A stretch of 64,000 bases of DNA, from contig JAWAYL010000002.1 of assembly GCA_038818725.1 (NCBI GenBank), positions 1,346 to 65,345 of the forward strand, read 5' to 3'. This stretch comes from Thermoplasmatota archaeon. GTDB taxonomy: Archaea; Thermoplasmatota; E2; UBA202; JdFR-43. Within the stretch, counting starts at the first letter, position 1; every line of letters begins with the position of its first letter. Under the pieces are notes generated by a model. It saw only the letters and a program-made list of their open reading frames with translations, had not been told where the DNA came from and ran no database searches. This document shows, one piece after another, positions 3,098-45,628 of this stretch. Position numbers and translations under genes: made by a program.

Positions 3098-4321
3098 ATG
3101 GATAAAAAATACATACTTGGAAGAAAAGATTCCGATGAAAAATCTGTTCTGAATATAGGAAAATATTATGCATTGGATGGCTCGCTTGGAGCTCCAGTAT
3201 TTTTAGACATTTCAAAGCCCCATATAGTTTTTATTTGTGGAAAGAGAGGATATGGAAAATCCTATACCATTGGAGTTTTTCTTGAAGAATTTTACTCACT
3301 TGAAGAAGAAATAAGAAAAAACATTTCTTTTATTGTTGCCGATACTCTTGGAATTTTCTGGACAAGCATTTTTCCAAATAAAAGAGAGATTGAAAGCTTA
3401 AAAAGATGGGGAATTGATGCAAGTGGTATAGAAATTGAGATTTTTTCATCTCCTGAATTAGTTAGCTATTATAGAAAATTTGGAATAAAAGCAAATGAAA
3501 TTTCAATAGCAACTTCTTATCTTAAAACATTTCACTGGTGCAGACTTTTTGGTATCTCTCCTAACTCTATGGAAGGAATTGCAATATCAAGAGCAATATG
3601 GGAAATGGAAGGAAAATATGATATAGATGACATAATAGAGAAAATAAGAGATGATGAAGAAATAAGCAATGAAACAAAGCTTGCCTGCATAAATTTTTTT
3701 GTTATGGCAAAAAATTTGAAAATATTTGCAAAAGAGGGAATAAATTTATCAGATATAGCAAAAAGAGGGAAAATATCGGTAATTGATTTAAGTTCTTATG
3801 ATGAAAGTATAAAAGAAGTAATTTTAAGCATTTTAGGAGAAATTATTTTTTATGAAAGAATTATTGAAAGAAAAAAAGATGAAGAAAGGGAAATAGGATT
3901 TTCAAAAGCAGAGCAAAATTTGCCTTTCATATGGCTTGTAATAGATGAAGCACATATTTTTCTCTCAAAAGAGGATAGAATAACAAAAGATGTTTTTATA
4001 AAGAAATGGCTCCGCCAGGGGCGCCAGCCTGGCCTAAGCCTAATTTTAGCGACTCAAAGAGCAAGCTCAATGGACAGTGAAGTAGTGGCTCATGCAGATA
4101 TAATTATCTGCCACCGCCTCACTTCGCAAGAGGATATAGATGCAATGAATAATGTTAGACCAACTTACATGAGAGAAAGCATAGGGGAGGCAATTAAAAA
4201 AATGGGGAGTGAGAAAGGGGTTGCTTTAATAATAGATGATGTGACCGAAGTTAGTCATTTAGTGAAGATTAGGCCGAGGAAAAGCTGGCATGGAGGAGGA
4301 GAGCCAAGCATAGCTATTTAG
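3098..4321 (+). CDS. HerA/FtsK-superfamily P-loop ATPase (DUF87-like)
   Basis: P-loop FICGKRGYGKSYT, Walker B LVIDEAHIF, and the FtsK/HerA-type ILATQRASSMD motif with conserved Q. Confidence 0.5.
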   Translation: MDKKYILGRKDSDEKSVLNIGKYYALDGSLGAPVFLDISKPHIVFICGKRGYGKSYTIGVFLEEFYSLEEEIRKNISFIVADTLGIFWTSIFPNKREIESLKRWGIDASGIEIEIFSSPELVSYYRKFGIKANEISIATSYLKTFHWCRLFGISPNSMEGIAISRAIWEMEGKYDIDDIIEKIRDDEEISNETKLACINFFVMAKNLKIFAKEGINLSDIAKRGKISVIDLSSYDESIKEVILSILGEIIFYERIIERKKDEEREIGFSKAEQNLPFIWLVIDEAHIFLSKEDRITKDVFIKKWLRQGRQPGLSLILATQRASSMDSEVVAHADIIICHRLTSQEDIDAMNNVRPTYMRESIGEAIKKMGSEKGVALIIDDVTEVSHLVKIRPRKSWHGGGEPSIAI

Positions 4322-4372
4322 CAAAAATTTTTTCATTAAAAAATAAAATATATTTGGAAGATATTACTCTCA

Positions 4373-5146
4373 ATGAACCCACTTATGCCAGTAAAGGGGA
4401 AAATAATTGAAAAAAGAAAAATAAATGATAAAAAATTTTTGAGAATCGAGGCAGAAAACTTTAATTTTATTCCAGGACAATTTGTAGAGATATCTCTTGC
4501 TGGAATTGGAGAATTTCCAATATCGATATGCTCCCCACCCTATGAAAAAAATTTTTTTGAAATTTGCATAAGAAAAGTTGGAAGAGCAACTTCTTTCTTC
4601 TATAATATAGATGAAATTGATTATGTTTTTTATAGAGGGCCGTATGGAAATGGCTTTCCAATGGAAAAACTGAAAGGGAAAAATATTGTCGCAATCATAG
4701 GAGGGCTTGGTATACTGCCATTAAGAAGTTTTATAAAAGAAGCTATTCATTCAAAAATTTATAATCAGATAAAAATTCTTTATGGAGCGAGGAGCAAGGA
4801 CGAAATTATATTTCCAGAAGAAATTGAAGAATGGAAAAAGCATGCTGAGGTATATGAAATTTTTGAAAAAGAAGGAGAAAAAAGAGGTTTTGTAACTGAA
4901 TTATTAAATGATATAGTTTTTGATGGGGACGAATATCTTCTTATATGTGGTCCGCCTGCAATGTTTAAGCCAGTTATAGAAAAAGCTATAAAAAGAGGAG
5001 CAAATGAAGAAAATATATATTTGTCTGTTGAAAGAAGAATGAAATGTGGCATTGGAAAATGTGGGCATTGTATTGTTGGAAGCTATTATGCATGCATTGA
5101 TGGTCCTGTTTTTGAGTATGTTAAATATAAGCATGCTATTTTATAG
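4373..5146 (+). CDS. PyrK/NfnA/HydG-family FAD/NAD(P)-binding oxidoreductase subunit with C-terminal [2Fe-2S] motif
   Basis: 257 aa. A ferredoxin-reductase-like fold (RGPYGNGF, GGLGILP) and a C-terminal CGIGKCGHC...C cluster motif, as in sulfide dehydrogenase beta / NfnA / hydrogenase gamma. First gene of a 6-gene translationally coupled operon. Confidence 0.7.
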   Translation: MNPLMPVKGKIIEKRKINDKKFLRIEAENFNFIPGQFVEISLAGIGEFPISICSPPYEKNFFEICIRKVGRATSFFYNIDEIDYVFYRGPYGNGFPMEKLKGKNIVAIIGGLGILPLRSFIKEAIHSKIYNQIKILYGARSKDEIIFPEEIEEWKKHAEVYEIFEKEGEKRGFVTELLNDIVFDGDEYLLICGPPAMFKPVIEKAIKRGANEENIYLSVERRMKCGIGKCGHCIVGSYYACIDGPVFEYVKYKHAIL

Positions 5147-5167
5147 CAAGTAAATGATAAATAAGAG

Positions 5168-5638
5168 ATGATAATTATTTCAGCAATGCTTGTATATAAA
5201 CAATTTCCAGTTTCGATAAATCAAGAAAAATGCTCAAAATGCAGAATATGTGTCTCAATATGTGATTGTTTTTCTTATGATAAAGAAAGGAGCATTATTT
5301 TATTAAATAATATTTCCTGCAAGGGCTGCGGGGTTTGCACCGCTTCCTGCCCTTCTTCTGCTATATCGCATATCCAAGATGATTCGTTTTTTTATTTCTC
5401 TGAAAAAAAGGAGGTAAATGAGCTTGAATGTGAAAAATGTCTTTATGAATTTGTTGAAAGAGAAGATTCAGTAATTTTTTGTGATAGAAGATTTGATATT
5501 GGAATTGCTATTAAAAAATTTTGCGAAGGAAAGAGAATAGAAGTAAAGAAGTGCATTTTTTCAGACAAGCTAGTAGAAAATGAAAAATTCAGAAAATTTT
5601 CAAAAATTGTTCATCTGTTTGGTGTAGAAAATGATTGA
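5168..5638 (+). CDS. 2x[4Fe-4S] ferredoxin-like protein
   Basis: Motifs CSKCRICVSICDC and CKGCGVCTASCP. Its stop overlaps the next gene start (5631/5638). Confidence 0.6.
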   Translation: MIIISAMLVYKQFPVSINQEKCSKCRICVSICDCFSYDKERSIILLNNISCKGCGVCTASCPSSAISHIQDDSFFYFSEKKEVNELECEKCLYEFVEREDSVIFCDRRFDIGIAIKKFCEGKRIEVKKCIFSDKLVENEKFRKFSKIVHLFGVEND

Positions 5639-36887: not shown

Positions 36888-37776
36888 AAAAAAGCTAAAG
36901 AAAGCAGAAGAAACTATTGAAGAGGAAAAAAAGAAGAGCTTATTTGGAATAAGTGAAAAAAAATTAGATGAATTGCTCTGGCAGATGGAAATTGAGCTAA
37001 TTGAAGCAGACGTTGCTTTTGAAGTTATAGAAGAAATTAAAAAAGAGGTGAAAGGGAATTTGGTGGGTGTATCAAGAAAGGAGGCAAAAGAGGAGGTCAG
37101 TAAAATAATTAAGGATACGATATATAGGATATTGAAAAATAGCGAAGGAAATTTTTTTGAAGAAATTAAAAAATTTGAAAAACCGATAATAATTTTATTT
37201 GTTGGAGTAAATGGCTCTGGAAAAACAACTGCAATAGCAAAACTTGCATGGCAATTAAAAAATATGGGTTATAGTTGCGTTATTGCTGCATGCGATACTT
37301 TCAGGGCGGGCGCCATCGAGCAGATTGAAAAGCATGCCTTACAGGTGGGGGCAAAACTGATAAAGCATGATTTCGGAGCCGATCCTGCTGCTGTTGCATA
37401 TGATGCAATAGAGCATGCAAAAGCAAGACACAAGGATTTTGTTTTAATTGATACTGCAGGGAGAATGCAGACAAATATAAATCTTATGGAAGAAATGAAG
37501 AAAATAAAGAGAGTTGCAAAGCCACATATGACAATTTTTGTTGGTGATGCTCTTATTGGAAACGATGCAATAGAGCAAGCGAAAAAATTTAATGAAGCAA
37601 TTGGTATAGATGGAGTAATATTGGCAAAAGTAGATGCAGATGCAAAAGGAGGGGCGTCAATTTCCATAGCATATTCAATAAAAAAACCTCTCTATTTTAT
37701 AGGTATTGGACAGAGCTATGATGAGCAAGTTCCCTTTAGTGCAGAATGGATGGTTAAAAGGATATTTGAAGAATAA
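36871..37776 (+). CDS. ftsY: Signal recognition particle receptor FtsY
   Basis: Acidic N-terminus, GVNGSGKTTAIAKLA, DTAGR, and AKVDADAKGG NG-domain motifs. Confidence 0.9.
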   Translation: MFQFLKKKLKKAEETIEEEKKKSLFGISEKKLDELLWQMEIELIEADVAFEVIEEIKKEVKGNLVGVSRKEAKEEVSKIIKDTIYRILKNSEGNFFEEIKKFEKPIIILFVGVNGSGKTTAIAKLAWQLKNMGYSCVIAACDTFRAGAIEQIEKHALQVGAKLIKHDFGADPAAVAYDAIEHAKARHKDFVLIDTAGRMQTNINLMEEMKKIKRVAKPHMTIFVGDALIGNDAIEQAKKFNEAIGIDGVILAKVDADAKGGASISIAYSIKKPLYFIGIGQSYDEQVPFSAEWMVKRIFEE

Positions 37777-40039
37777 ATGCTGATAAATTATCTTCTCTAC
37801 TTCTTCCATTTAAATAAGATATTGCCTTTATTTCATAATTTCCAAAACAATTTTTAATGAGAAGCCATTCATAAGGAGGCGCATTATCAGAAAATTCAAG
37901 CTTGCCATTTAAATAAAAATCAACTTTTTCTCCATTTGTAATTACATTTACTCTAATTTTCCCTATTATTATTGCCTTTTCAGAATTTACCCTTGCAATT
38001 TCCCTATCAGCTATATATATTTTACCCTTTGATGGTTTTAAAATTTCAATAAAAGGCTCTTCATCTATTGAATATAAAATGCTGCAATAACTTGATTCTA
38101 TCTCAATTATTGTTTCATTTTCTTTTTCAAAAAAATTTATATCTTTAACTTCTTCCATAAAATTTAAAATTTTTGCATCTTTTATTTTACCCCTAATTTT
38201 TAACTCCGCTCTATCTCCAAAATTTAATATTCTAATTCCTTCTTTTCCATCTTTTTCATATCTAAAAGCGATTGCATTTCCTAATATTTCAAATGGCTGG
38301 TAAATATTTGCTTTTTCAATTAATTCTAAAAATTTATTTCTCCATTTCTCGGCTTCCTGGCTTCCATTTTCTTCCCCTGGACTTGCCTCCCATATATAAT
38401 ATCTCCCAACAGGCAAAGGATAGAAAATTGATTTTCCTTTTCCATATTCATTTAAGTAAATTTTTTCTTCAATATGTGAGAAATTAACTCCAAATAAATC
38501 TTGCAGTAGAAAATTATTTCTCCTCTTTCCAAATTCATTATAAAGAGATGTTTCATATGTGGATATCAAAATTCCTCCTTCTTTAACATAATCTCTTAAA
38601 ATTTCCCCCTGCTCCTCGGACATGCATGAAAAATCTGGTAAAACAACCGCTTTATATCTCTTAATTTCCTTAATATCCTTTTCATCTATTACTTTAAATT
38701 GTATATTTGATTGAATTAGCATCATAATTGAGCCAATTAATTCATCATGATATGCATAACCTTCCCAACCCCCTTTATCAGCATAATCAAGTGTATTTCT
38801 TGAAAAAACTAAGGCAATTTCTGCTGGGTTTTCCCATCCATAAAAATATTCTCCATTTCTTCCTATCCATTCAAAAAATTCTTTTATAAAATTTTCATCA
38901 ATTGCCCCACTCATTGATTCATCCCCAGATGTATAGTAGTTATCATAGTTTGATGATAAAATAATCCATGTGTGCATATTTAAAAGATCAATATCATTTT
39001 CATAAACATAAGAGAGAAGCCAACTATGCTTAAAATCGATATCATTCCAAAATTTCAAATTTGCAAGCATATATATCCATCCATAATATTGGATTTTTTT
39101 GAAAGGACCACTGTATTCATGAGCAATGGCATCGCATACTTCATTAAGCAATTTCAAATCAACACCATATTGTGTAGATGAAACAGTTGAAGAAGATGTT
39201 TCAACAATTAGCTTACAATCTCTATTTATCTCTTTTAATGCATTGTTAAAATCTCTTATATAATCATTTATCTGCTTGTATCTCCACTTAATAAATGAAA
39301 GCCAAGAAATATTGTTCCAATCAGGCTGAATCGGTAAGGAAAGATTAAATCCAGTATCACTATAAAAATCATTTAAGCTAGCTTCGTCAAAACTGCACCA
39401 CTGTTCTTTCCAAGCATATCCAAACTCAAAACACAGATGAGGTACATCAAGCCAAACGCCATCAACAAATTTCGCCATCTCTCTTGCTATGTTCATTATA
39501 ATATTTTTATATTCCTTATTACTCGGGCTAAGCCATACGTCCTCGCTTGTTTCATCAACCCAGAATGGCATTCCCGACATTGAACCATAAAAAACAGCTT
39601 TACTTCCGTCTTTTCCAACCTGAAGCCAATCTGGATGGTCAGTATATGTGCTATTTTTCCCATCATCATCCTTTCCGTCTCTATTCATATCGCTATCAAT
39701 TGTTTGCATTTCAAGAGGAGCTATATAAACAACATATTTTATTCCAGGATAATTTGAATGAATAAAATTTGCTTTCTCTTCTAATTCTCTTATAGATTCA
39801 TTTATGGATAGTATTCTTCCTTGATAGGTATCACTTCCTCCAAACCAATCAAGAATTACATTTGCATTTTTCTCCACCGCTTTCCTAACCCCTTCTTCCC
39901 ATGAAAGACTATAAAAATAGGGAGTTAAAATTCTTGCATTATAAAGCCAGTCATCTTCACTTTCGCTATTTATGTTATAGCTTATAATTTTAAAGGGAAA
40001 AAATGTTAAAATTATAAATATTGCAACTAATTTTTTCAT
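37754..40039 (-). CDS. Large secreted protein with putative glycoside-hydrolase-like (GHL-type TIM-barrel) domain
   Basis: N-terminal signal/TM (MKKLVAIFIILTFFPF), 761 aa, with an aromatic/Asp-rich carbohydrate-enzyme-like composition (DGVWLDVPHLCFEFGYAWKEQW). The family assignment is tentative. Confidence 0.35.
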   Translation of the reverse strand: MKKLVAIFIILTFFPFKIISYNINSESEDDWLYNARILTPYFYSLSWEEGVRKAVEKNANVILDWFGGSDTYQGRILSINESIRELEEKANFIHSNYPGIKYVVYIAPLEMQTIDSDMNRDGKDDDGKNSTYTDHPDWLQVGKDGSKAVFYGSMSGMPFWVDETSEDVWLSPSNKEYKNIIMNIAREMAKFVDGVWLDVPHLCFEFGYAWKEQWCSFDEASLNDFYSDTGFNLSLPIQPDWNNISWLSFIKWRYKQINDYIRDFNNALKEINRDCKLIVETSSSTVSSTQYGVDLKLLNEVCDAIAHEYSGPFKKIQYYGWIYMLANLKFWNDIDFKHSWLLSYVYENDIDLLNMHTWIILSSNYDNYYTSGDESMSGAIDENFIKEFFEWIGRNGEYFYGWENPAEIALVFSRNTLDYADKGGWEGYAYHDELIGSIMMLIQSNIQFKVIDEKDIKEIKRYKAVVLPDFSCMSEEQGEILRDYVKEGGILISTYETSLYNEFGKRRNNFLLQDLFGVNFSHIEEKIYLNEYGKGKSIFYPLPVGRYYIWEASPGEENGSQEAEKWRNKFLELIEKANIYQPFEILGNAIAFRYEKDGKEGIRILNFGDRAELKIRGKIKDAKILNFMEEVKDINFFEKENETIIEIESSYCSILYSIDEEPFIEILKPSKGKIYIADREIARVNSEKAIIIGKIRVNVITNGEKVDFYLNGKLEFSDNAPPYEWLLIKNCFGNYEIKAISYLNGRSREDNLSAFILQISF

Positions 40040-40057
40040 AATAAAAAAAGAAAAAGG

Positions 40058-41728
40058 TTAGCTCACGCCCAGCACAAATGGGCCGAGCAGAAAAGCGGTT
40101 GCGGTTGCTGAAGCATCTCCTGCCTTTGCCTTTATGTTTACTTTTCCAATTCCTAGAACTAAGCCAGTGCTTACTGTTACACTTACTCCTGGTTGAATTT
40201 CTGAAATTATTCCTTCCTTATGCTTTCCTATTAATACAAGCTTCCCTTCTAAATCAATGCTCCATTTAACATTTTTAGCTGGTGCATTTCCAATGTTTGC
40301 TATTTTTACTTTTGCTCCAAAACCGCCGGAAATAGCTAATTGAAGCACTGCAGCTCTTCCAACTATATCAAAGAATATATCATTGTTTCCATTAAATGTG
40401 TCAGTCCATACTCCATAGCTACCTTCTACATCAAGACAACCATATCCTTCATAAACTGTAGATGGATTATCATTTACCTGTTCTATCTCCCATGTCTTTC
40501 CACCATCATTTGTTTTTGCTGAATAAACATTTCCATCTTTTGTATAAAGCACAGTTGATTCATTAGCATTTATGGCTGTTACTGCTGGATATCTTTCATT
40601 TTCTCCCGGCGTTTCTGTAACATAGTATCCTTTCCAGGAAGCTGCATTGCTTGGAGTGGAGCTTGTCCAGCAAACTATATCTGTGCTTCCATCATCATTT
40701 AAAAATTCAGTTGCAATATAAAATCTTCCATCTTTTGCATCTACATATGGATGCATGCAATTTTTAAATTTAGCTCCATTCCATCCTCCACGCCACCAAT
40801 CTTCGGAAGAAGTTATCTTTTTAGCTAACAAATAGCTTCCAAATACGGAAGGATCTTTTTCATCTATGAAATCAGCCACCATAACACACCATCCCGTTGA
40901 TTGATCAATATCTACAGAAACATTAAAAACATCTACTGACATATTATAGAAGAATATTATAGTGACATATCCTTCTTCGGTAGCATATTGGAACATAAAC
41001 GCATTATCCTCTTCATAGCCGGAATATTGATTATCGCCAGTAAATGCAACTATACCCCAGAAATCGGGCGTTGGCGGCGTTGCCATTGCATAACATGCGA
41101 CATCAGAGCTTGTAAATGGGGCTCCTATTCCATAGCTTTCACCCCATCCAACTCTATAATAAACCCATCCATACTCACCTGCTTCTGGATCAGTTATATC
41201 TGGAAACTCTGCATAATATGCATAACCAAAAGCTTCTATTGGATCAGCTGTCCAAGTTCCATATGCTGTCTTACCTTCATAAAAATCTAATCTAGGCTGT
41301 TCTGGGTTTCCATCTACTTCAAAATAGTAACCTTCTGGCCAATTAGCCCCTCCATCATATGAGACACCTATACCTATATCAAACTGATTTATATCTGTTT
41401 CTATTTCATATAAGCACAATATGTTAGCGCTTCCATCTGTTGTAATAGCTGGATTTTGATCAGCTCCTTCATTTAGAGTAATCTGGATATCAGTTGGTAT
41501 ATAAAATCTTTTGAAACTTTCCCTAGTTGGCTTGATTTGCAATTGCAAATCAGCGGGTGTAGCAGAAACAGGTATTGGAGTGGGGGGTTTATTAATATGT
41601 GTTTCTTTTACTAATGTTTTTTTAGAAATATTGTTTGCGTTGCTCAATAGCATTGCAGCTACTAAAACCGCACATATTGCCAGCATTTTTTTCCCTTTCA
41701 TTTTTATCAGCCTCCTAAAAGAAATCAA
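40058..41728 (-). CDS. Secreted BNR/Asp-box repeat beta-propeller protein (sialidase-like fold)
   Basis: Signal peptide MKGKKMLAICAVLVAAMLLSNA; Asp-box motifs SYDGGANW and TNDGGKTW; hydrophobic C-terminus. Confidence 0.55.
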   Translation of the reverse strand: MISFRRLIKMKGKKMLAICAVLVAAMLLSNANNISKKTLVKETHINKPPTPIPVSATPADLQLQIKPTRESFKRFYIPTDIQITLNEGADQNPAITTDGSANILCLYEIETDINQFDIGIGVSYDGGANWPEGYYFEVDGNPEQPRLDFYEGKTAYGTWTADPIEAFGYAYYAEFPDITDPEAGEYGWVYYRVGWGESYGIGAPFTSSDVACYAMATPPTPDFWGIVAFTGDNQYSGYEEDNAFMFQYATEEGYVTIIFFYNMSVDVFNVSVDIDQSTGWCVMVADFIDEKDPSVFGSYLLAKKITSSEDWWRGGWNGAKFKNCMHPYVDAKDGRFYIATEFLNDDGSTDIVCWTSSTPSNAASWKGYYVTETPGENERYPAVTAINANESTVLYTKDGNVYSAKTNDGGKTWEIEQVNDNPSTVYEGYGCLDVEGSYGVWTDTFNGNNDIFFDIVGRAAVLQLAISGGFGAKVKIANIGNAPAKNVKWSIDLEGKLVLIGKHKEGIISEIQPGVSVTVSTGLVLGIGKVNIKAKAGDASATATAFLLGPFVLGVS

Positions 41729-41772
41729 TAAAATATAAATAAATTTTTTGATTGTCCCGAATATTGAGGAAA

Positions 41773-42477
41773 CTAAAATAATTTTTTCATTTTTCTAAAG
41801 ATTATAGAAATAATTAAGGAAAAAAATAAAATTGCTGTTGGCAAGGGTGTTTTTTTAATGTTATAATTTGTTTCTAAAAGAATAATTTCAATGCTTTCAT
41901 TTAATCCAACCATTTTTATCCAGTTCCCTGTTTTTTCGCTATAATAAAAAACATAAGAAAGATTTTCATTTCCATATCTTCTTTTTTCAACGATTTTATA
42001 ACATTCATATTTTTCTGAATTTATTTTTATTTCTTCTTTTCCAATGCATTGAGATTGTATGCTAATATACACTGTTCCCCCATTGCTTACTTTAAAAAAC
42101 TGACTTATCATTTCCCCAACATCAATATTATATAAAAAGAAATGGGCGGGAGGGGAATAAATTCTCTCCAACTCTTTTCCTTCATAAAAATCTATATCTT
42201 TTAATGTTGCAAGGTCACCAACCCTTATATATGAAATTCTTTTGCTTCCTTTTTCAGATATTTGAGAGATATTAAATACTTCATAACTATTATTTTCATA
42301 TTCTATAATTTCTTTTTTTTCGATTTTAACAGTTAATACATCCTTTTTTGTTTTATTCAATGAAATTTCATATTTCCAATAGTTTCCTTCTCGCCAGGCG
42401 GGCTTTTCAAGCCTTGCTTCCGATAGAGGAAAAAAAATAAGAAAAGATATTGCTATGGTTATTATTTTTTTAATCAT
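41773..42477 (-). CDS. Small secreted protein with C-terminal TM anchor plus basic tail (possible archaeosortase-type sorting signal)
   Basis: Signal MIKKIITIAISFLIFFPLSEA. The C-terminus is ...KKTPLPTAILFFSLIISIIFRKMKKLF. Confidence 0.4.
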   Translation of the reverse strand: MIKKIITIAISFLIFFPLSEARLEKPAWREGNYWKYEISLNKTKKDVLTVKIEKKEIIEYENNSYEVFNISQISEKGSKRISYIRVGDLATLKDIDFYEGKELERIYSPPAHFFLYNIDVGEMISQFFKVSNGGTVYISIQSQCIGKEEIKINSEKYECYKIVEKRRYGNENLSYVFYYSEKTGNWIKMVGLNESIEIILLETNYNIKKTPLPTAILFFSLIISIIFRKMKKLF

Positions 42478-42494
42478 CTGATAATATAGAAAAC

Positions 42495-43415
42495 TTAAAT
42501 AAATTCTTTTTGGAAAATAAATATTCCACCAATGAAGGCTGGCAAAAGTATCGTTATTATATATCCACTTAAAGAAAGAGCTATTACAGATGCGTTATCA
42601 ATTCCATAAAAAGAGAAGAAATATATAAGTACGCTTTCTCTTGTTCCAAATCCTGCAATAGTTACAGGGATTATTCCTATTAAAGAAGCGACTGAATATA
42701 TGATTAAAAAATCAAGAAATGGAATTGAGATATTGAGAGAAAATGAAACTATATATATCTGAAAAAACATTATTAAATAACTTAAAATTTCTATAAAAAT
42801 CGTCAAAAGGAAAAATCTGATAGATGGAAGATTATAAAGGGAGTCTGGAGGAATCAACGAGGAAAAATTTTTAGGTATTACAAATTTGAAAAAAGATAAT
42901 ATTTTTTTGCTTTTTTCCCTAAATATAAAATAAAAAAGCATGATTATTAAAGAAAATAATAAAAATATAGGGAAGAGATAAGGAAATTTTCTGTAAATAA
43001 AGATGCTTCCCAAAAGGACAAGAAAAATAAGAGATGTTAGCTCAATAATTTGATCTATAAAAACATTTATGATGCAGGCATGAATAGGTTTTTTGCTCTC
43101 CTCCATTAAATAAGGAACTCTTATGTAATCTCCTATCCAGAGGGGTGTTATGCTTCCATAAAAAAGACCTATAAGATTTATTTTTATTAAATAAAGATAT
43201 CTTGCTTCTATTCCTTGTTTTCTGCATATCAGCATCCATTTATAAGTACTTATAAAAAAGCGAGGGATAAAAAGAATGGAGGATATTAAAACTGCTAAAG
43301 GAGAGATTTTTTTAAAAATTTCAAAAATTTCATTTATTCCAGTTTTGTAAATAATATAAAAAAATAGAATTAAGCCAAAAAAAGGCAATATTTTTTTAAC
43401 GCTTTTCCATTTCAT
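42495..43415 (-). CDS. Flippase-like / lysyl-PG-synthase-TM-domain (UPF0104) membrane protein
   Basis: 306 aa polytopic. GLFYGSITPLWIGDYIRVPYL resembles PF03706. Confidence 0.5.
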   Translation of the reverse strand: MKWKSVKKILPFFGLILFFYIIYKTGINEIFEIFKKISPLAVLISSILFIPRFFISTYKWMLICRKQGIEARYLYLIKINLIGLFYGSITPLWIGDYIRVPYLMEESKKPIHACIINVFIDQIIELTSLIFLVLLGSIFIYRKFPYLFPIFLLFSLIIMLFYFIFREKSKKILSFFKFVIPKNFSSLIPPDSLYNLPSIRFFLLTIFIEILSYLIMFFQIYIVSFSLNISIPFLDFLIIYSVASLIGIIPVTIAGFGTRESVLIYFFSFYGIDNASVIALSLSGYIITILLPAFIGGIFIFQKEFI

Positions 43416-43460: not shown

Positions 43461-45628
43461 GTGAAATTTAGACACAAGCTAACAATTCTCATGCTTGCAA
43501 TCTCAATCCCTTTAATATTAGTTCCATTTATATTGTCTGAAAGAATAGCGCAAGAGTTGAGAGTACAGGCGGAAGAAAACATAAAAAATATAGTTGAGGC
43601 AAAAACAGAATTTTATGAGCATATTTTTGCGGATTTAAGAAAAGAGCTTGAAGTAATGGTCAAATTGATAGAAGAAAACTGGGGAAAAGGAAGTTTTTAC
43701 AACTTATCTTATATATATATAGCATAAATGGAAGTTATGATATTGAGGAAGTTAAAAATTTTGAATTTATAAGCCAAGCATTTGGAATCTCAGCAAAAGA
43801 TGAATATATAAGTCTTGTATATTTTGGCACAGAAAGTGGCTTGTGCTTTTTAAGTGATAGCGAGTTTGCAAAAAGGTTATATGAGATAAGAGACGAACAT
43901 GGAAATAGAATAGATTATAGGAATAGGCCATGGTATAAGTTGGCAAAAGAAAAAAACTCAACAGTATGGTGTCCTCTTTATATTGATTTAAATACAGGAA
44001 AATTAACAACAACAATTTCAAGCCCAGTATTTATAAATGGCGAATTTGCGGGGGTGGCGGCCGCGGACTTGCTTCTTGAAACCCTAAGGGAAAATATAAT
44101 TGATATAAATTTTGCTGGACATGGATATGCAATATTAGTTGAGGAAGATGGAGATATTTTAGTTAGTCCAGAATATACTGAAGGAGGAAGAAAATGGAAT
44201 GAGACTTTTGAAGAATATAATATTTTCAATATAAGTGGGCTCAATGAAATGGGAGATTATGTAAGAAATTCTTCTGAAGGAATGAAAATTATAAAAATGA
44301 ATAATGAAAAATGGTATGCTTTTTCTAATCCAATTAAGGAAATAAATGGTTCCTTGATTTTTATAATCCAGGAAAAAGTGATTACAAAAATTGTTTCTGA
44401 AAGAGAAAAAGAGTATCTTGGCTTCTTTATTTTTATTTTTATAGCAGCTATGATTGCATCTGTTGTATTTTCAAAAAGTTTAACAAAGCCAATAGAAGAG
44501 TTAAGAGAAGTTACAAGAGAGGCAAGCAAGGGAAACCTTGATATAAGGGCTAAAACAGAAGGAAAAGATGAAATTTCAGAGCTTTCAAAAGATTTTAATA
44601 GAATGATGGAAGAATTAAGCATATCAAATAAATCTTTAAAGGAATCTGAAGAAAAATATAGAGGAATTTTTGATGAATCAATGGATGCAATTTATATATC
44701 TACATCCGAAGGAAAATTTGTTGATATAAATAATGCTGGGCTAAAGCTACTTGGCTATAGTAAAGATGAAATTTTTAATATAAATATTGAAGAAATTTAT
44801 GAGAAAAGAGAAGATAGAGAAAAATTTAAAAAAGAAATTGCCAAAAAAGGTTTTTTAAAAAATTATGAAGTCAGATTAAAAAGAAAAGATGGAAAAATAA
44901 TTGATTGCCTTATTTCTGCAATAAAGATTGAAAAAGATAATAAAATATATTATCAGGGAATAATAAGAGATATAACTGAATTAAAAGAGGCAAGAAAAAT
45001 GCTTGAGATGTATAACTCTCTTATAAGACATGATATAGGAAATAGAAATCAAATAGCATTAGGTTGTTTAGAATTGCTTCAAGAAAGTGATTTAAAAGAG
45101 GAGCAGAAAAATTTGCTTGATAAAGCATATGAAAATATTATGCAATCTCAAAAACTTCTATATAAGTTAAGCATAATAGGGAGAATTGGAGAAAGAGAGC
45201 TTAAAAAAATTAGCCTTGATGATGCTATAGAAAAAAGCATAGAATTTTATAAAAATATTGCTGAAGAAAAAGGAATAAAAATTTCTTTTCAAAAAAGGCG
45301 AGCTTTTGTTATTGCCGATGAGCTAATTGAAAACATATTTTCAAATTTTATAGAAAATTCAATAAATCATTCAAACTGCAAAAATATTGAAATATCAATT
45401 GAAGAGGAGGATGATTATTATATTGTAAGAATAAAAGATGATGGAAAGGGAATAAGCGATGATGTTGCAAAAAGAATATTTGAGTTAGGAGTAAAAGGAA
45501 GGAATAGCAAAGGTAGTGGCTTGGGCTTGCATCTTTCAAAAATTATTGTTGAAGGATATGGAGGGAAAATATTTCTTAAAGATGCAAAAAATGCGGAGTT
45601 TGAAATATACTTAAAGAAAGCGGACTAA
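43461..45628 (+). pseudogene. Sensor histidine kinase (TM - Cache - TM - HAMP - PAS - HisKA - HATPase), interrupted by a frameshift around 43682-43727
   Basis: ORF 43461-43727 encodes TM1 plus the start of a periplasmic domain. The ORF in the other frame (open from 43652; track start 43841) continues ...INGSYDIEEVKNF...RPWYKLA (Cache), a TM helix, HAMP, PAS (KDGKIIDCLISAIKIEKDNKIYYQGIIRDITELK), HisKA (LIRHDIGNRNQ) and HATPase (GSGLGLHLSK). The frames are offset by one nucleotide near the T5 and (AT)5 runs. Confidence 0.6.

Follow-up and report, generated by a model that had tools for sequence, protein, structure and literature searches.

Four adjacent exported-protein genes of a Thermoplasmatota archaeon: a probable lineage-specific juxtaposition with a glycosidase-like protein and a C-terminal CARDB-type module

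In a contig of a Thermoplasmatota archaeon (GenBank assembly GCA_038818725.1, contig JAWAYL010000002.1, positions 1,346 to 65,345), four contiguous genes on the minus strand encode a flippase-like membrane protein of 306 amino acids (aa), an anchored orphan protein of 234 aa, a secreted Asp-box beta-propeller protein of 547 aa that ends in a CARDB-type module, and a secreted glycosidase-like protein of 761 aa; a sensor histidine kinase is the divergent neighbour. The whole stretch of 64,000 nucleotides (nt) that was analysed is referred to as the window (Table 1). An earlier reading of its sequence by a model, i.e. the original prediction, had placed four contiguous minus-strand genes at 37754-43415, the exact coordinates at which we recovered them, and had interpreted the products as a co-functioning module for the processing of envelope glycan or exopolymer. 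The genes are separated by gaps of 17, 44 and 18 nt, the second gap growing to 71 nt when the propeller gene is taken to start at the ATG at 41701. This start is preferred because GGAGG lies 8 nt 5' of it and because the NCBI annotation also gives 547 aa, so that the product of the third gene is most likely the 547-aa protein and not one of 556 aa. Any co-transcription of the four genes would have to be read from such spacing.

Comparison with related genomes indicates that the four genes do not belong together beyond this species. In the sister genome L001 (GCA_014361245.1), the flippase-like protein (85% identical, encoded at the same position) and the glycosidase (75% identical) are found in the gene order GltX, 721-aa kinase, flippase-like gene, glycosidase, FtsY, prefoldin; the flippase-like gene and the glycosidase gene are 9 nt apart, and the genes for the 234-aa protein and the propeller are absent. 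In more distant Thermoplasmatota the glycosidase gene has different surroundings. When GTDB was scanned with one genome per species, 77 further loci with glycosidase homologues were obtained, distributed over Thermoplasmatota, Bipolaricaulota, Aminicenantes, Anaerolineae, Acidobacteriota and other phyla; at none of these did tblastn with the other three proteins recover a flippase-like, 234-family or propeller gene as a neighbour. After all-versus-all clustering of the open reading frames (ORFs) within 5 kb, no neighbour family extended to more than 6 of the 79 glycosidase loci. The genes beside the glycosidase homologues in L003, L004 and L005 were tested as candidate relatives of the 234-aa and propeller genes and proved to be unrelated. 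Homologues of the propeller stand alone among housekeeping genes in five loci (L006, L008, L093, L094 and L095), and the two loci of 234-aa homologues present an unrelated context, with a PIN-KH-ATPase gene adjoining. Neither a glycosyltransferase nor a response regulator is encoded at the locus itself. The comparative genomics of the cluster that had been proposed as a check has thus been run and gave no conserved module. The original prediction had itself named a lack of co-conservation as refuting it; given this lack in L001, in the 77 loci and in the contexts of the propeller and 234-aa homologues, the idea of a co-functioning module was not sustained. What is left, the flippase-like gene and the glycosidase gene with the divergent kinase, is at most a two-species syntenic unit.

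The species is known from metagenome-assembled genomes (MAGs) only, and the possibility has to be weighed that the two intercalated genes, or the frameshift of the kinase described below, arose during assembly. All data do come from metagenome assemblies, and the window and assembly L011, with one mismatch between them in 12.2 kb, could represent the same population. The identical four-gene layout is nevertheless present in four other assemblies of the species, L009-L012, namely GCA_038863095.1 and GCA_038839295.1, which are NCBI MAGs under the label Candidatus Thermoplasmatota archaeon, and two Logan assemblies, with 99.8-99.99% DNA identity to the window. Because the layout is the same in these four near-identical assemblies, we take it to be real and not a misassembly. 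As each allele of the TA repeat in the kinase gene is also seen in more than one assembly, and as the GC content at third codon positions (GC3) is uniform (0.19-0.27 in all genes of the region), an artefact is hardly credible.

The region is AT-rich (27-39% GC over the window), and neither GC nor GC3 gave a signal of foreign origin for the two middle genes, i.e. those of the 234-aa protein and the propeller. The genes around the four-gene run are archaeal housekeeping genes (CDC48, S19e, L31e, eIF6, prefoldin, FtsY, GltX and polyprenyl synthase). At the downstream end, the 3' ends of the glycosidase gene (minus strand) and the convergent FtsY gene (plus strand) overlap by 23 nt (37754-37776), an overlap that is also found in L001 and L009. 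A scan for promoters and terminators of the bacterial type, a bacterial model applied to an archaeal host, returned 31 promoter-like sites versus 34.9 expected and did no better than on shuffled sequences; TTTATATA boxes were seen 21 times versus 12 expected, a count that 3 of 100 shuffles reached, and were unusable for promoter mapping. PADLOC reported no defence-system match for any of the four proteins.

Table 1. Positions of the genes and elements of the locus within the window.
Feature	Position	Strand	Basis or remark
Flippase-like PF03706/TIGR00374 polytopic membrane protein, 306 aa	42495-43415	-	ORF listing, hidden Markov model (HMM) matches
Orphan type-I membrane protein, 234 aa	41773-42477	-	ORF listing, hydropathy, three-way alignment
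Secreted Asp-box propeller, 547 aa	40058-41701	-	ATG start; 556 aa if read from the TTG further upstream, at 41728
C-terminal ~97-aa CARDB-type module of the propeller protein	40058-40351	-	Ends ...TAFLLGPFVLGVS-stop
Secreted glycoside-hydrolase-like protein, 761 aa	37754-40039	-	ORF listing, Pfam, structure model
dCache_1-HAMP-PAS-HisKA-HATPase sensor histidine kinase, divergent neighbour, split	43461-45628	+	Pfam, ORFs
(TA)6 dinucleotide run, cause of the kinase frameshift	43710-43721	+	Sequence; intact alleles have (TA)5

The assignment of the first gene to the flippase-like/UPF0104 polytopic membrane proteins was borne out. The 306-aa protein matches Pfam LPG_synthase_TM (PF03706) over its full length (122.5 bits, E=3.1e-35, cut-off 33.4) as well as TIGR00374 (92.9 bits, cut-off 43.2), and multiple hydrophobic 19-mers over residues 5-295 mark it as polytopic. 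In both respects, i.e. the full-length match above the curated cut-offs and the membrane topology, it resembles the flippase domain of MprF and the stand-alone PF03706 'UPF0104' proteins. Unlike MprF, it has no aminoacyl-phosphatidylglycerol synthase domain (the model of the bifunctional MprF, NF033480, scored 24.7 bits against a cut-off of 600), and no lipid-modifying or glycosyltransferase gene is adjacent. A literature search on PF03706 returned nothing relevant.

In the case of the 761-aa protein, which had been described as secreted and hydrolase-like, the Pfam matches and the structure model point to a glycoside hydrolase (GH) and not to a protease. Glyco_hydro_42M (GH42M) is matched with 34.6 bits (cut-off 25.8), GLMA_2nd at threshold and GHL6 weakly (18.5 bits versus a cut-off of 35), the GHL6 alignment ending at D198. 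An exact look-up of the sequence gave no record, and homologues were used instead. The model (predicted local distance difference test, pLDDT, 91.6) consists of a signal peptide, a (beta/alpha)8 barrel (~30-400), an alpha/beta domain of the GH42M type (~405-580) and two beta-sandwiches (583-758), the last of which is Big_7/Fn3-like; the N-terminal signal segment is the sole hydrophobic segment of the protein. Full-length fold matches were obtained to GH42, GH151 and GH164, and the barrel resembles those of PgaB (GH153) and Cwp19. At the sequence level, a profile of 52 homologues matched PDB sequences in the middle domain (GH42M) only and not in the barrel, and the model of the GH42 catalytic domain was unmatched.

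The catalytic machinery can be approached through conservation. Eight acidic or polar residues are invariant in the 52 archaeal and bacterial homologues (E110, E166, D167, D193, D198, E280, H307 and E308). In the predicted model D198 closes strand 194-198 (VWLDV), H307-E308 close strand 304-309 (AIAHEY), and strand 339-344 (SWLLSYVY) carries no invariant acid; by their numbering on this model, the three strands were taken as beta4, beta6 and beta7, respectively. GH42 belongs to clan GH-A, in which the catalytic Glu residues reside on beta4 and beta7. The 761-aa protein differs from this arrangement, in model numbering, by an invariant Asp at the end of beta4 and the lack of an invariant acid at the end of beta7, although the TIM barrel, the trimerisation-type alpha/beta domain and the beta domain are common to it and to the GH42 beta-galactosidases and alpha-L-arabinopyranosidases (5XB7, 4OIF) and the GH164/GlmA-type enzymes. 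In GH151 the nucleophile, Asp154, is found at the end of beta4 and the acid/base, Glu235, at the end of beta6 (PMC10154630), and the functional fucosidase Mfuc3 has an architecture of GHL6 and GH42 middle domain (PMC4723247). Because D198 and E308 stand at the ends of beta4 and beta6 as in GH151, because Mfuc3 has the architecture just mentioned and because the GHL6 alignment reaches D198, the two residues would by their position match the catalytic layout of GH151, here combined with a GH42M middle domain. The 761-aa protein would then be an active retaining glycosidase with the three domains of the GH42/GH151 type, Asp198 serving as nucleophile and Glu308 as acid/base. It is at the same time distant from the GH151 alpha-L-fucosidases that combine GHL6 with Glyco_hydro_42M (ALfuk2, PDB 6TVK, and Mfuc3): identity is 12-13%, GHL6 stays below its cut-off, a helical insertion of ~50 residues follows beta4, an Ig-like (immunoglobulin-like) domain is added at the C-terminus, and the protein is secreted.

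A search of 5.8 billion protein clusters gave 128 matching ones, from Thermoplasmatota and several bacterial phyla. In bacteria, homologues occur as fusions with dockerin, GH5 cellulase and right-handed beta-helix domains, such as are typical of the breakdown of polysaccharides outside the cell. Because of these fusions, and because the archaeal proteins have a signal peptide and no membrane anchor, the degradation of extracellular glycan is favoured: the enzyme would cleave glycan outside the cell, and the acquisition of substrate would be a more probable role than the remodelling of the cell's own envelope. The latter is kept alive, by analogy, by the likeness of the barrel to PgaB and Cwp19.

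The propeller protein is composed of a signal peptide, a seven-bladed propeller (residues ~82-446) plus, at its C-terminus, a beta-sandwich of the CARDB type. Its model (pLDDT 88.5) is all-beta, with ~27 strands in the seven blades that precede the sandwich. BNR, BNR_2 and CARDB all remain under the Pfam cut-offs, and searches of PDB sequences gave no match for the propeller. The description of this protein as a sialidase-like BNR/Asp-box propeller stood in part. The fold and two Asp-box motifs of the S/T-x-D-x-G-x-x-W type (SYDGGANW at 114 and TNDGGKTW at 397) are shared with the Asp-box (BNR) propellers, which include the GH33 sialidases, but the catalytic residues of a sialidase are missing. 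The residues that are invariant in the propeller family (P84, P372, W404, N410, W432 and D434) contain neither an Arg triad nor a Tyr/Glu pair, and thus do not provide the catalytic set of the six-bladed GH33/BNR_2 enzymes; as modelled, the protein is a seven-bladed fold without sialidase catalytic residues. The fold matches are generic, the top seven-bladed ones including lectins as well as GH145, PL25 and PL42. We infer a non-catalytic surface protein with a binding or structural role. Three members of the propeller family (P0134, P0138 and P0153) have a PKD domain and a different aromatic/hydrophobic tail of ~25 residues in place of the CARDB-type module; because these three carry another tail, the C-termini in the family are regarded as modular.

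The 234-aa protein is an orphan, for which no match was found in Pfam, NCBIfam, PADLOC or the PDB and just 3 homologues in 5.8 billion clusters. As expected from its description as a secreted protein with a C-terminal anchor, hydropathy assigns to it an N-terminal signal segment and a single C-terminal transmembrane (TM) segment (residues 209-230) followed by RKMKK. In the three-way alignment an ectodomain of ~185 aa with two invariant Cys is followed by K-[TS]-P-[LF]-P, which is also conserved, and then by the TM helix and basic tail. The only non-identical homologues are those of L013 and L014, with 79% and 45% identity. Each is encoded immediately upstream of a gene for a conserved ATPase of the PIN-KH-T2SSE type (region 236-2746 in L013 and 538-2409 in L014), and the ATPases of the two loci are 77% identical to each other. 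In L014 the protein upstream of the 234-aa homologue was considered as a glycosidase neighbour and rejected, the common part being a generic Big_7 Ig domain (29% identity, E 6e-4).

Both the 234-aa protein and the propeller had been described as ending in hydrophobic C-termini that could be archaeosortase-type sorting signals. For the 234-aa protein the TM segment and the basic tail agree with such a signal; there is, on the other hand, no PGF or PEF motif in the tail, and no NCBIfam model, sorting-signal models included, was matched even at E<=10, which leaves the archaeosortase reading open but weak. For the propeller protein it was dropped: its hydrophobic C-terminus (...AFLLGPFVLGVS) is the last beta strand of the beta-sandwich of ~97 aa, strands being predicted up to the last residues. 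Because the module has neither a TM helix nor a basic tail, it is not a tripartite signal of the archaeosortase type. In the related Thermoplasmatota MAG L006 (GCA_029259055.1), at 4047-5530, an ArtA gene (TIGR04125, 170 bits, cut-off 75) overlaps a phosphatidylserine-decarboxylase gene; the adjoining convergent gene has a 119-aa product with a CARDB-type module at the C-terminus, and a propeller homologue is located 3 kb off. With the ArtA and phosphatidylserine decarboxylase of L006 as queries, tblastn found nothing in the 64-kb window.

The C-terminal module is, on sequence evidence, probably a divergent CARDB domain: the copy in the window scores 19.6 bits with CARDB (PF07705) against a cut-off of 22.7, and CARDB was recognised at E<=0.01 in 18 of the 22 related modules, the best value being 4.6e-6. 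Neither Pfam nor NCBIfam has a model specific to the module, and the NCBIfam models of sorting domains were unmatched. A profile of the module, run on 1.84 billion representative proteins (clusters at 50% identity), retrieved 2,895 clusters at E<=1e-3, of which 1,454 at E<=1e-10. When the 145 newly found proteins within the top 150 matches were re-scanned for its position, the module ended at most 7 residues from the C-terminus in 143 and at most 1 residue from it in 103, the two exceptions being giant proteins with 11-12 partial repeats. A signal-like N-terminus was present in 88 of the 129 module proteins that start with Met. The passengers are diverse and include C25 and S8 peptidases, beta-helix/NosD proteins, SBBP propellers combined with cadherin-like domains, as well as PKD and Ig domains. 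Among the loci compared, 1.13 Mb in all, the module is confined to those of Thermoplasmatota. It occurs in L006 (5514-5873), L008, L093, L094 and L095, and in L078 (2260-2541) it terminates an unrelated 552-aa secreted protein encoded directly upstream of a glycosidase homologue.

Comparison among propeller proteins suggests that the module has a history of its own. The orthologues P0122-P0124 are 66-69% identical to the window protein in the propeller and 54-62% in the module, whereas the paralogue P0130 from the same MAG (QXW78_05760) is 28% identical in the propeller and 92% in the module. A group of paralogues (P0132 and P0135), which stem from long contigs of other samples, shows 29-30% and 75-79%, respectively. 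Because the pattern is repeated on such contigs, exchange is preferred to a chimeric contig as its cause; the conflict between the two histories indicates, at the level of the sequences compared, an exchange of modules or concerted evolution between paralogues.

Its position, the diversity of its passengers and the exchange between paralogues suggest that the module has a shared role in surface retention or sorting, and the module of the propeller protein would accordingly retain or sort that protein at the cell surface. In being strictly C-terminal on signal-peptide proteins with unrelated passengers, the module of the window is comparable to known C-terminal sorting modules (archaeal PGF-CTERM/ArtA, that of the bacterial type IX secretion system (T9SS), CARDB). 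The C-terminal domains of the T9SS are, like the module, beta-sandwiches. The known sorting systems differ from it in that no machinery for secretion or attachment was identified for the module. As a tentative proposal, which we consider possible and less than even in its chances, the module (...SGFxLGPFVLGVS-COOH) could be a hitherto undescribed domain by which archaea sort or retain proteins at the surface from the C-terminus, a functional analogue of the T9SS C-terminal domain or of surface-layer homology (SLH) domains, that is present on thousands of secreted proteins, adhesin-like ones among them, and whose paralogous copies are kept homogeneous within a genome by recombination. A literature search for a sorting role of C-terminal CARDB domains in archaea found no description.

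The divergent neighbour has the domain content of an extracellular-Cache histidine kinase, as had been predicted (dCache_1, HAMP, PAS, a weak HisKA and HATPase_c in Pfam), but is not intact in the window, where it is split into an 88-aa ORF (43461-43727) and a 595-aa ORF (43841-45628). The split is due to a 2-nt expansion of a TA repeat, because (TA)6, found in the window and in L011, shifts the frame relative to the (TA)5 of L009, L010 and L012. An intact kinase of 721 aa is encoded in the latter three and in L001; L012 differs from the window by three mismatches and by the TA indel, as one gap, over 12.2 kb. Judging from the reading frame, the kinase is probably off in the window genotype, and the TA polymorphism may represent either slipped-strand phase variation or a strain-level pseudogene. 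Because the kinase is frameshifted and no response regulator is adjacent, the signal-dependent control that had been ascribed to it is unsupported.

Taken together, we consider it the best explanation, and a moderately likely one, that the four exported-protein genes are a lineage-specific juxtaposition and not a conserved functional module, the glycosidase being active, the propeller non-catalytic and the CARDB-type module a means of retention. The older unit would be a pair, i.e. the stand-alone PF03706 flippase-like gene followed by the gene of the Sec-exported glycosidase, between which two unrelated genes are placed in this species only. Several points weigh against this explanation. Gaps of 17-71 nt, and the 9-nt gap in L001, fit co-transcription; some functional coupling of the flippase-like/glycosidase pair is possible, and the order of kinase, flippase-like gene and glycosidase gene is kept in two species. 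GC3 is uniform, and therefore an insertion of the middle genes here versus their loss in L001 could not be polarised. The catalytic residues are assigned from predicted secondary structure and conservation, and surface retention by the module is deduced solely from position, passenger diversity and paralogue exchange.

The orientation and the short gaps are also what would be expected of a dedicated envelope-glycan or exopolymer operon, in which the flippase-like protein would move a lipid-linked glycan, the glycosidase and the propeller would trim it outside, the small protein would serve as an anchor and the Cache kinase would exert control. That each of the four products is either exported or a membrane protein, that L001 and L009 have the same order of kinase, flippase-like gene and glycosidase gene, and that the barrel resembles PgaB and Cwp19, which cut surface polymers, would be accommodated as well. 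Such an operon is nevertheless unlikely, considering that the sister species lacks both middle genes, that homologues of their products are located elsewhere, that a flippase-like neighbour is found at 0 of the 77 other glycosidase loci, that glycosyltransferase and response regulator are lacking, and that in the window and L011 the kinase is frameshifted while the other genes are intact. A newly assembled, small locus resembling those for polysaccharide utilisation, with the propeller as a lectin-like, surface-held protein that captures an environmental polysaccharide and the glycosidase as the enzyme, would suit the dockerin, GH5 and beta-helix fusions of the bacterial homologues, which point to polysaccharide degradation, and the presence of lectins, GH145, PL25 and PL42 among the top seven-bladed fold matches. 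In L078, moreover, a different secreted protein with the same C-terminal module is encoded directly upstream of a glycosidase homologue; this neighbour has the module in common, however, and not the propeller, the pairing of propeller and glycosidase is not conserved, and no transporter or sugar-metabolism genes are adjacent, which makes this account improbable too.

On the preferred reading, i.e. a lineage-specific juxtaposition, genes for exported proteins may lie closely packed and co-directional in a compact archaeal genome, and this by itself is no evidence of a functional module. The components each belong to a known kind, some as divergent members, namely PF03706 proteins, GH42/GH151-like glycosidases, Asp-box propellers and CARDB domains. 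The 761-aa protein represents an uncharacterised glycosidase family; its GH42/GH151 architecture and conserved Asp/Glu pair make it a reasonable target for the discovery of carbohydrate-active enzymes (CAZymes) from thermophiles. The parts of the locus that are worth following are the TA repeat of the kinase and the CARDB-type C-terminal module. An on/off switch of a sensor kinase by a TA repeat would, if true, be a rare archaeal candidate for phase variation. If the module is indeed a sorting domain, it is the module, and not the four-gene cluster, that is the object of interest in the window, and its retention role, if true, could explain how these archaea keep extracellular enzymes at the cell surface.

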